NCBI GenBank assembly: GCA_015680685.1
Contig: MNCI01001040.1
Coordinates: forward strand, 468,279-532,278
DNA from: Gnetum montanum
Lineage: Eukaryota > Plantae > Gnetophyta
DNA length: 64,000 nucleotides
Direction: 5' to 3'
This document shows positions 52,197 through 56,493 of the stretch, piece by piece. The notes beneath the pieces were generated by a model. It did no database searches. It was not told where the DNA came from and saw only the letters and a list, made by a program, of their open reading frames with translations. The position numbers and the translations under genes are program-made. The stretch's first letter is position 1, and each line of letters opens with the position of its first letter.

Positions 52197-52241
52197 TATC
52201 TCATCTTCTTTCACATAGGTAGTATCACATTTCTTAGTGGT
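52197..52241 (+). repeat. Left 45-bp direct repeat (identical to 56449-56493)
   Basis: TATCTCATCTTCTTTCACATAGGTAGTATCACATTTCTTAGTGGT at both ends of the PLE. Confidence 0.97.
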
Positions 52242-52641
52242 AGTTAAAGTTATCAATCTACGATTGGTAGTTCACCTCTCGACCAAAGAAAAGCATTTCA
52301 TGTGTGGCTCTACCATCCAACATCAAAATATCTTTTTTTTCTTAAAGCCCACTGAATATTTTTTTTTGGGACTCTATCTTAAGCATTATCTAACTCGATG
52401 AAAATCATATTCACATTATTCTTTTTATATTAAAATTTTTGCATAAGTTTTCTTAGTAAGAAAACGACTTCTATAATTAAACTCCCTAGCATAAAACCAA
52501 ACCGATTCATTAAAATGATAAGAATAGCTTACCATAAATATATAAAATTTCATAAGCATAAATTTATTCTTCTAAATTTTTGTAAATCTTCCAACCACTT
52601 GTGGAGTCGTCCCTAAGAACTTCTCCTTTCGGCCGAACCAG

Positions 52642-53805
52642 ATGGCCAAGCCCCATCCTGGCCCTGCCAGACAGCCTGCTAAAAATCAGCAGAAAAAACA
52701 GCCGCAACAGAAACAACAACAGCAGCAAAAATCCAAAAATTCCAAGCAACAGCAACAACATCTACAGCAAAAACAACAAAATCAACATCTTCAACAGCAA
52801 CAACAATTTCACACACAGCCAAATCGCAGACAGCAAAATCAGCAAAACATGCAAGGGAATCAACAAACTAAACAAAAACAACAGTTTTTCACTGCTTCTA
52901 GATCTAACCAAAATAATTTTGCTTCAGGTTCTAACTCAGATCCTGGCATTAATTCGATTAATTTTGGTTCTGGTTTTCGTTCGGGTTCTAGTTTTCGTTT
53001 GGGTTCTGTTTTCTTGCAAGACGTAGGTTCTGGTTTTGGTCATGGTGCTCCTGCAGGCCCTAACCTCAGACCCGGCCGTGGCCGCGGTCGCGGCCGCATT
53101 TTTGAGCACGGTGCAGACAGATCTGTTTTTGGTTCAGTTTGACGCGGTAGAAATTTCAGTTGTTTTGAGGGTCGCACGGGGGGCAGATCTGGCGGCAGAG
53201 GTCGCACAACCTTCAGATCTGATAGATCTGAGGATTTCATTCCCGGTTCTACTCCTTGATCAGAGTCTTTTGGTTCAGGGCCTCCTCGACCTCGTTGTTT
53301 CAACCGTCGCCCTCACCCTTCTTTCGCGCCTCGACCGCCCGCACGATCCGATCTCCCTCTAGCTTCGCGCTCTAATCCACGCTCTTTTGTCTTTGGATCT
53401 GGTTTCACTGCAGGTTCCAACTCTGCTTAGCCGCAGCCGCCGCCCTCCCGATCTGCTCAGCCACTGCATTTCGATTCTGTTTCAGGATTAAACCCTAATC
53501 CCGTTTGGCGTGCTGCGTCCGCCGCTAATGGTGCTTCTGTTTCTACGTCTCTTTTCTGTTTTCCCGCCGCTGCTGATGCTGCTTCCGCCGCCGCCGCTAC
53601 TTCCGCCGCCACCGCCGCCGCCGTCACCTTTAGTAGCGGATCTTCCTCCCTTGGTGTGGCTGTTGTCACCTTTAGCAGCAGATCTTCCTCCCTTGGTGTG
53701 GGCTTCAATGGAATGAATGTTTGTAATTTGAATTCTGAGGCTATTTGTCTTGAGGATAGTAATTCTTCTGGGTCTTTAAACCCAGACGGCCCAGCCCTGA
53801 ATTAA
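52642..53805 (+). pseudogene. PLE ORF1, 387 codons, low complexity (Q/N-rich, then RG/FG/S-rich, then poly-Ala)
   Basis: One frame from ATG 52642 to TAA 53803-53805, broken only by TGA 53140, TGA 53257 and TAG 53428, each one C-to-T change from CGA/CAG. TATAAA at 52541. Confidence 0.8.
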
Positions 53806-53816
53806 GGGGCTAGGCC
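53775..53816 (+). promoter_or_regulatory. Putative -1 programmed ribosomal frameshift signal (T TTA AAC, 6-nt spacer, hairpin)
   Basis: Slippery heptamer 53775-53781 is correctly phased in ORF1, and its -1 frame is the RT frame. Stem 53788-53798 / 53806-53816. Confidence 0.8.
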
Positions 53817-55994
53817 CCACATGACCCCCTGTCCCCGCCTTTCAAACACCCTCCCTTCTCTTCTTTGTCCCATTCAAACCTCCATTCCCGTTGTCTTTGG
53901 GTAATCTACTTCAATGTGTGCCCTAAACAACCCCCCGCAAATTCCCCCCTTTGCTCCATTTATGCCACTGCCCGAACCCTCCTCCCTTCAAATTTTTCAC
54001 CTCGTGCCCAGAAACCCTCTCTTCATTCCCGTTTGAATTTTTGGTTACCAGCGCTTGACCAAAAAGCCTACGCTCATTTGCTCTTCGCCAGAAAAACCGT
54101 CCGAGAAGTCGAAAACCGTCTTTCCAACTTCGCGGTACATAATTTTTCTTCTCGCGTTCTTTCAGCAAACGAAACGAAGCTCCTGGGTCATGGTTTAAAA
54201 TTTATCCCCCGCCCCCCTCCCATGGATAAAATAGCTATCCTTAATGAATATACCGCGTTTTCCCACCTTCTGCGTTTGCGTAACTTCTTTAAGGATAATC
54301 CTGATGTTGATTTGCCATCTTCTAAATTTCTTTGTGCTATTCAGATGGCTAAAATTAAAATTCGCCGTTCTAATTGGGATCCCCCTCCCGGCAGCTAGAA
54401 TGGGGAACTTGAACATAGCATTCGCTATGGTCTTAAGTCCCTTCACTCTGCCCTCACCTCCCTCGATGTCCGCCAAAGACCCATGCTTCCAAGATGTCTT
54501 CTTGGAGCCCTTCGTGGACTCCGAAAAGATAACAGCATCGTCATTCGTCCTACTGACAAGAATTTGGGGGTGTGTGTTTTAGACTCCAGTTGGTATCTAA
54601 TGGAAGCCAACGGTCAGCTTGCTGATTCAGAAGTTTGCCTTCAAGTGGATGCCGTCCCATGGGATCCTGTTCGTCTCAGACTGCTTGCCATCATCGACCG
54701 CTTTCCGAAGAAATTGTCTGTTTTTAAGGATGTTTTGTTACAAAACAAGGTTCGCAAACCTTGTAATTTCTACATCCCTAAAATTCATAAACCGGTCATG
54801 GTTGGTCGGCCTATTTGTTCTTATAAAGGCTACATCCTTGAACTTGCTTCTCGCCTGCTCCATTTCTTGCTGTTACCAATCCTTTGCCATCAACCCAATC
54901 ACCTTTTGGATTCCTCTACCTTGATCCGTGACCTCCATGCTAGACCTCTACCTCTTAATGTAATTATTTTTACATTTGATGTAGAATCTCTATATCCTAG
55001 CATTCCCACGGATCAAGGGCTTCAGGTTCTTCAGGACATGGTTGATAAATATTTTGCTGCAAATCCCATCCCTTTGCAGTCGATGTACAGCAATGCCATC
55101 ATGCAACTCTCTGCTTTGGTGCTTCAAGAACACTACCTTGAATTTAACGGGGTAGTGTACAAGCAAACCAGGGGCACTGCCATGGGTAGCAACTTTGCAG
55201 TTGTTTACGCATGTCTTTTTCTGTGTCATTTGGAAAAGCATGTCTTCGTTGCTCCCTGGTCCGATAACCTTTTATATTTTAAAAGGTTTATCAATGATGC
55301 TTTTGGCATTTGGAACGGCTCCGAGGATTCCCTTCGTACCTTGCTTGAAAGGTATAGTAATGTTTATCCTTCCATAAACATTACTCCCACCCTCTCTAAC
55401 TCCACGGTTAATATTTTGGATGTTACTTTTTTCAAAGGTCCTCATTTTGCTGACACTGGTATCTTGTCTACCAAGTGTTATCAAAAACCTTTGAATACTT
55501 ATCAGTACATCCCCTTCTCCTCTTGGAATCCATTCCATCAGAAGAAGGCTTTTATTATTGCGAAGTTGAAACTGTACCTGATTAGGGAATCCTGCCTCGG
55601 CGATCTTCAGCAGATTCGGCAACAACTGTTCTACAGACTTCGGGCTTGTGGCTATCCTTCTCGGCTGTTGTTCAAATGTTTTGGCTTAGTTCCTGCTGCT
55701 TCCTGAGGTTCACTTCTGGAACGACTTCAGCAAAGTCATAGCTTCCATAAGGTTCAGGCCCCTCTCATCTTCAAATTGGATTTTAGTCCATCCACTAAAT
55801 CCTTGAACGTGAGGGCACTCCTAAACCCTTTTCTGAGTCAGCTTCGGCAAAAAGATCCGAAACTCAAGGACGTCATTCCAGACATGATCTCTTGCTGGCG
55901 TAATCCAAAAAAGCTGCATTCTTTTCTTGTTTAGAACAAGTTCAGTGCTCAACCCCCACCCCCACTTCGACCTGAACGAGTGGGGCCGGTTTAA
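53775..55994 (+). pseudogene. PLE reverse transcriptase ORF2 (740 codons, 4 in-frame stops), no GIY-YIG after the thumb/linker
   Basis: Motifs VHNFSSRVLSANETKLLGHGLKFIP, IRPTDKNLGVCVLD, IPKIHKP..GRPI, FTFDVESLYPSIP, YKQTRGTAMGS, RFIND (FIDD with a CpG transition, 55287-55298), YQKPLNTYQYIPFSS and WRNPKKLHSFLV. Stops at 53811, 54396, 55704, 55932; terminal TAA 55992-55994. Confidence 0.92.
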
Positions 55995-56099: not shown

Positions 56100-56145
56100 A
56101 AACATACTGAAGAGGGGTGAGACTCCCCGAAAACGTTTTATGTTT
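56100..56145 (+). ncRNA. Minimal type I hammerhead ribozyme
   Basis: Stem I AAACATA/TATGTTT (56100-56106 / 56139-56145), core CTGAAGA (56107-56113), stem II GGGG/CCCC (56114-56117 / 56125-56128), GAAA (56129-56132), palindromic ACGT, then U-H (56137-56138). Confidence 0.9.
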
Positions 56146-56272: not shown

Positions 56273-56450
56273 AAATTTTTTCAGCTACAACCTTAAAATT
56301 TTTTTAGCTACAACCTTAAAAATTTTTTCAACTACAACCTTAAAATTTTTTTAGCTACAACCTTAAAATTTTTTCAGCTACAACCTTAAAATTTTTTCAG
56401 CTACAACCTTAAAAATTTTTTCAGCTACAACCTAAAAATTTTTTCAGCTA
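56273..56450 (+). repeat. 3'-terminal tandem array, ~7.6 x 23 bp (AAAATTTTTTCAGCTACAACCTT)
   Basis: Seven full units plus one partial unit running into the right 45-bp repeat with a 2-nt TA overlap. Confidence 0.97.
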
Positions 56451-56493
56451 TCTCATCTTCTTTCACATAGGTAGTATCACATTTCTTAGTGGT
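56449..56493 (+). repeat. Right 45-bp direct repeat
   Basis: Identical to 52197-52241. Confidence 0.97.

Follow-up and report, generated by a model that had tools for sequence, protein, structure and literature searches.

The window analysed here, a stretch of 64,000 nt from Gnetum montanum (contig MNCI01001040.1), contains an endonuclease-less Penelope-like element (PLE), while the remainder of the window, including the flanks of the element, consists of LTR-retroelement debris (Table 1). The remnant of a first open reading frame (ORF1) overlaps a reverse transcriptase (RT) frame that is uninterrupted across 53763-55994, as judged from single tblastn segments. The best named RT homologs were found in Cryptomeria japonica (51-54%), in Ginkgo-type gene models (48%) and in Selaginella moellendorffii (46%), and elements that carry GIY-YIG (PF01541) are among the homologs too, with identities of about 30%. 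We take the N-terminal and core motifs of the window RT to be those of PLEs. The frame stops 273 aa past the GxAMG motif, and a scan for the GIY-YIG motif was negative in the window and in 14 out of 14 families of its clade. Pfam yielded nothing above cut-off for the window RT or for ORF1, a PDB search gave no match, and Rfam gave no relevant match for the window. Moreover, a profile of the conserved helical domain from the ORF1 of relatives found no match in the window, so that only the low-complexity tail of ORF1 is present here; the same profile weakly matches a Ginkgo model (E 4e-4).

Table 1 Features of the Penelope-like element and its ORF1/RT overlap (positions of the window).
Feature	Position	Strand
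Left copy of the perfect 45-bp direct repeat, which may be a target-site duplication	52197-52241	
ORF1 remnant with Q-rich, RG-rich and A-rich low-complexity tail; ATG at 52642	52576-53805	+
TAA after which the -1 (RT) frame opens	53760-53762	+
PLE reverse transcriptase, without GIY-YIG endonuclease, single frame throughout	53763-55994	+
Block without listed variant of at least 5% in sister copies	53764-53793	+
Small hairpin, 53767-73 able to pair with 53780-86, surrounding most of the slip site	53767-53786	+
Slippery heptamer U UUA AAC, in ORF1 phase	53775-53781	+
Spacer CCAGAC, 6 nt	53782-53787	+
Stem-loop predicted to be stimulatory, stem of about 10 bp (53788-97 paired to 53807-16), variable 9-nt loop	53788-53816	+
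ORF1 stop TAA, inside the hairpin loop, 21 nt past the heptamer	53803-53805	+
Hammerhead ribozyme motif of type I, helix III palindromic, 3' UTR	56100-56145	+
23-bp tandem repeat, 7.7 copies, 3' end	56273-56450	+
45-bp perfect direct repeat, right copy	56449-56493	

The window copy is dead, with three internal stops in ORF1 (53140, 53257, 53428) and four in the RT frame (53811, 54396, 55704, 55932), seven in all, and it is probably 5'-truncated. The 45-bp repeat has only two copies in the window, which flank the whole element; should it represent a target-site duplication, it would be unusually long and would suggest that the element inserted at a staggered break. Host or filler DNA may make up the AT-rich stretch at 52242-52580. 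No CCCTAAA match is present between 54776 and 56600, and six occur in the whole window.

Within the 43-nt overlap of ORF1 and the RT frame, which stands in the -1 relation to it, lie a phased slippery heptamer, a spacer and a hairpin. A previous, sequence-only reading had described this arrangement as a coronavirus-style -1 frameshift cassette, and a recheck of the window sequence bore out every coordinate that it had given. ORF1 is read TCT TTA AAC, placing TTTAAAC in the X XXY YYZ phase; the arms that had been assigned to 53788-98 and 53806-16 enclose the ORF1 stop in their loop; the sole stem mismatch, C53792:A53812, indeed belongs to the TAG at 53811-13 of the RT frame; and this frame lacks an ATG ahead of its N-terminal motif, as had been stated, the first ATG being at 54222, past the HNFS motif. 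From the proposed stem of 11 pairs about 10 bp were retained, but the 11th pair (T53798:G53806) is absent from other copies. As required of a -1 frameshift site, the heptamer is phased and lies in the overlap, and the predicted structure begins within 5-9 nt downstream. Seven of the 265 plus-strand heptamers in the window precede a fold of -15 kcal/mol or better, giving a chance expectation of approximately 0.0013 heptamers with such a fold for the 12 positions of the overlap that are in phase. Compared with shuffled sequences, the 29-nt hairpin alone had a z of -3.0 (1 out of 200 shuffles equally good) and a 57-nt block a z of -4.4, while the 89-nt stretch from 53782 was unexceptional with a z of only -0.97, the hairpin and the 89-nt stretch having been picked post hoc.

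The U UUA AAC signal of coronaviruses uses a pseudoknot, that of astroviruses is A AAA AAC, and HIV-1 uses a stem-loop. For the window, a pseudoknot was considered and rejected, the longest helix between the loop and the next 30 nt downstream being 3 bp, a length equalled by 272 of 300 shuffles. The coronavirus likeness is thus confined to the heptamer, since the predicted stimulator is a plain hairpin with a stem of some 10 bp and not a pseudoknot, which brings the window site nearer to the astrovirus or HIV-1 design. More generally, it resembles the -1 signals of viruses and LTR retroelements in its X XXY YYZ heptamer, a spacer of 5-9 nt, a downstream structure and the fusion of a structural ORF to a polymerase; unlike the viral carriers of such signals, the window element is a non-viral retroelement. 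A possible H-type pseudoknot was observed in one relative (L003, positions 170-260), where a 6-bp loop helix past the heptamer was matched in 14 of 300 shuffles, whereas the other families have plain hairpins. The slip site itself occupies the loop of a small hairpin (53767-53786), whose 3' arm is the spacer and which could tune frameshifting. Enclosing hairpins of different sequence recur in some relatives (L003, L004, L007, L018; not significant in L003). As a general feature this hairpin was discarded, because p was 0.05 or lower at only 5 of 22 sites, one of which owes its significance to a second heptamer located in the loop of the first stem.

For the sister copies, contigs of four DNA runs, representing three samples and three organism labels, were aligned to 53500-54200, and a narrower alignment on 53735-53860 comprised 31 contigs of one DNA run, three contigs of two presumed-RNA runs and one read of an RNA run. 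Contigs omit rare variants, and the data are therefore to be read as presence of variants. The heptamer is kept in the sister copies, with no listed variant of at least 5% across 53764-53793. The full list of variants at or above this level in 53735-53860 comprises 53794, 53798, 53799, 53806, 53812 and 53826, three of them in the loop, and from these positions a family stem of about 10 bp with a 9-nt loop can be deduced. Position 53812, where the sequence-only reading had expected a G in other copies, has this letter in the majority (330/382, 175/217, 163/184 and 155/229 of summed contig depth in the four DNA runs, among the variants listed), and the A of the window is the minority letter. The pair at 53794 is broken in a minority (51/409 of depth), and compensatory stem changes, which had also been anticipated, were not seen within the window family. 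No sister copy carries an indel that fuses ORF1 and RT into one frame, 53735-53860 being without indels; within 53500-54200 the indels near the site total 3 nt among the variants listed, all upstream of 53764, and in a single X5 contig 1 nt is inserted at 54027. Furthermore, subfamilies with different ORF1 tails turn alike abruptly 11-12 nt before the heptamer, as seen from depth and loose ends.

Distant relatives retain the same design. A metagenome scan provided 76 loci, from which 10 cut by contig edges, 13 broken or short and three with a long in-frame N-terminus were dropped, leaving 50 testable loci, many of them near-duplicates. A phased heptamer within the ORF1/RT overlap was present in 45 of the 50, and in 39 of the 50 a stem of -12 kcal/mol or better also starts 3-10 nt after it. 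Clustering at 90% RT identity gave 25 clusters, 20 with a phased heptamer and 14 also with a strong stem, while at 60% identity 12 of 16 clusters were phased and only seven had both heptamer and strong stem. Across these 16 clusters, heptamer counts by phase were 20:4:0, and a long or edge-cut upstream ORF stood in the -1 relation in 12, as opposed to one cluster with an ORF of at least 150 codons in the +1 relation. In a quick, midpoint-rooted tree of 51 RT cores, from which P0078 was dropped and which held no named Athena or Coprina, the window fell into a clade of 26 rows with an SH-aLRT of 100, together with Selaginella, Ginkgo, Cryptomeria and the closest loci; L003 adjoins a protein whose cluster includes a Picea glauca entry. 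Via their clusters 39 testable loci were placed in this clade of Selaginella, Ginkgo and conifer elements, 38 of which are phased, and the lone unphased one (L039) differs by a one-letter change in the same cassette. As 31 of the 39 form a single cluster at 60% identity, the clade amounts to about six independent lineages.

The usual heptamer among the relatives is AAAAAAC, and the stems downstream are unrelated in sequence, with z values between -2.6 and -7.0 for the window and for 11 families of the clade (four lineages); two of the approximately six lineages (L001, L002) have the heptamer without a significant stem at the tested site. The ORF1 domain was in the frame that needs a -1 shift at 26 of the 30 loci where it was found, and only the frame of these matches is informative, because the profile was built from 21 of the 30 loci. 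The share of paired cells in the stem is 86% for the largest related family, versus 19-46% when the stem is slid. Covariation in the stem of the related family is modest: only two of 14 stem pairs have changes in both partners, a number not above that of shuffles (334/500), although pairing and covariation score beat all 500 shuffles in a control that ignores relatedness. An ATG ahead of the N-terminal RT motif is absent from the window and six of 14 clade families and present in the other eight. In a neighbouring clade (L048, L052, L056 and the edge-cut L049, L053, L058), we observed one frame of 1,000-1,850 aa, and fused and frameshifted designs therefore coexist among related PLEs. These one-frame elements (L048, L052, L056, P0081, P0084), whose RT is homologous to that of the window at approximately 28-32% identity and whose ORF1 and RT share one long frame, lie outside the clade of the window and have no need of a frameshift.

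Ribosomes undergo -1 frameshifting by tandem slippage at a heptamer, stimulated by a downstream structure. Considering that both sister copies and distant relatives retain this design, the RT of the element is likely made as in retroviruses, via a programmed slip backward by one letter, and the conserved heptamer and hairpin very probably act as a programmed -1 ribosomal frameshift signal of an endonuclease-less PLE. On an intact copy, the majority of ribosomes would translate ORF1 up to its stop in the hairpin loop. A minority would be held up by the hairpin while UUA occupies the P site and AAC the A site, move back in tandem by one base onto UUU and AAA, and go on in the RT frame. We infer from established rules of -1 frameshifting the slippage itself, its efficiency and the stoichiometry of the products, which would be abundant ORF1 protein alongside a scarcer ORF1-RT fusion. 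Where a family has an ATG upstream, independent initiation of the RT might serve as an extra route. The interpretation given by the sequence-only reading was largely right. Its estimate of the fusion length, about 1,115 aa (380 + 737 = 1,117 aa by our count from the ATG at 52642), is probably too short, as it presumes a start at this ATG in a copy that lacks the conserved ORF1 domain. One contig of a presumed-RNA run extends 2,425 nt ahead of the slip block, compared with approximately 1,520 nt from the left repeat in the window, and in seven relatives (L004, L005, L008, L009, L016, L023, L034) ORF1 is 635-821 aa long from its first Met, from which fusions of roughly 1,200-1,500 aa would follow. 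The ORF1-RT fusion of an intact copy thus probably falls within this range, which defines the likely full-length protein needed for the biochemistry of endonuclease-less PLEs.

Synthesis of the RT could instead start separately, at an ATG ahead of the N-terminal motif, by reinitiation, leaky scanning or from a shorter RNA, with the cassette being a relic or serving another purpose. The eight clade families with an in-frame upstream ATG would allow this, and some annotated Cryptomeria proteins begin at such an ATG; however, the window and the remaining six families have none, and the families that do possess it still keep heptamer and stem, which makes a separate start improbable. A splice that links ORF1 with RT or excises the overlap is disfavoured and appears more improbable still. 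Conserved introns are drawn for PLEs according to the legend of Fig. 1 of PMC8557442, and the Ginkgo models Gb_11119 and Gb_40217 connect the RT with an ORF1-like part, although they may be prediction artefacts over the frameshift. Against this, the three contigs from the two presumed-RNA runs have the block unbroken, no splice-like joint was present in the sister-copy contigs, contrary to what a spliced fusion would predict, and splicing leaves the phased heptamers unexplained. In Ginkgo-type models (P0014, P0078), the link between an ORF1-like region and the RT is possibly a predicted intron that bridges the frameshift.

Similarly improbable is a role of the conserved block as a cis element in RNA packaging or reverse transcription, with no more than a resemblance to a frameshift signal. 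The heptanucleotide TAAACCC at 53777-83 corresponds to a permutation of the telomere repeat of plants. A second hairpin around the slip site and the fold of the 57-nt block, which is better than in its shuffles (z -4.4), would suit such an element. Nevertheless, the relatives use AAAAAAC and unrelated stems, so that only phase and spacing are kept, and the enclosing hairpin reached significance at only 5/22 sites. Programmed -1 frameshifting is the preferred reading.

Frameshifting between ORF1 and RT has a precedent in animals: according to the legend of Fig. 1 in Craig et al. 2021 (PMC8557442), ORF1 of animal PLEs may be set apart through a frameshift that involves a pseudoknot. From that arrangement, as worded in the legend, the window differs by its simple hairpin, its gymnosperm host, its interstitial position and its 45-bp flanking repeats. 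The mechanism is known and already drawn for animal PLEs; we document its predicted signal, with a hairpin as stimulator, throughout a clade of endonuclease-less elements associated with plants. We presume that the animal frameshift in question is that of Athena. With the animal endonuclease-deficient PLEs of the Athena/Terminon type the window element shares an RT without GIY-YIG, a coiled-coil-type ORF1 and a 3' hammerhead, while their hallmarks, reverse-complement telomeric repeats after the hammerhead and a telomeric location, are absent from the window. The sections available of the review by Arkhipova and Yushenova (PMC6431247) describe two-ORF EN-minus PLEs and Terminons and do not discuss frameshifts.

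In plants, telomere-associated EN-minus PLEs were reported from Selaginella moellendorffii (Gladyshev and Arkhipova 2007, as cited in the available passages of PMC4209133 and PMC12477314), Selaginella being the plant example of telomeric PLEs in PMC12477314, and PMC4209133 describes canonical type I hammerheads in Selaginella PLEs. The window hammerhead resembles those characterised for PLEs in the passages of PMC4209133. A S. moellendorffii protein, which we do not equate with the published element, is 46% identical to the window RT and belongs to the same SH-aLRT 100 clade; the published Selaginella PLEs are telomere-attached in these accounts, whereas the window element is without telomere attachment. 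The same passages of PMC4209133 and PMC12477314 make no mention of a frameshift for Selaginella PLEs, and the corresponding portions of PMC3846280, PMC5408684, PMC5718144, PMC11539532 and bioRxiv 2022.06.16.496473 added nothing on PLE frameshifting. Overall, searches of full-text literature showed no frameshift in a plant PLE, and the Terminon paper (Arkhipova et al. 2017), the 2007 article by Gladyshev and Arkhipova, that of Lin et al. (2016), the supplements of these or Repbase/Dfam entries may already note one.

Our analysis would extend programmed -1 frameshifting in PLEs from animals to a plant-associated clade, and could explain why plant annotations present these elements as RT-only genes or odd spliced fusions. 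Additionally, it offers a natural series of candidate frameshift signals from plant genomes, with the same phase, unrelated stems and an ORF1 stop 3 to approximately 500 nt downstream. Endonuclease-less PLEs are the sister group of telomerase. A broader and tentative proposal, which we regard as possible rather than probable, is that a land-plant-wide clade of these elements has kept hairpin-stimulated -1 frameshifting since before the lycophyte/conifer split, with a gag-pol-like ratio of helical ORF1 to ORF1-RT and non-telomeric insertion with long duplications. If true, a particle-forming, frameshift-regulated strategy would be general, and perhaps ancestral, among the retroelements nearest to telomerase.

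The conserved helical ORF1 domain of the relatives spans about 220 aa (approximately 405-1079 in L001) and has no Pfam match; a search with it returned three unnamed proteins only. Several ORF1 tails among L013-L033 contain CCCTAA-type tandem repeats that are read as Asn-Pro runs, as if telomeric repeats had been incorporated into the coding sequence. Finally, the Picea glauca protein ABT39_MTgene4059 (P0098, in the cluster of P0011), named as a mitochondrial-assembly gene, clusters with PLE RTs.
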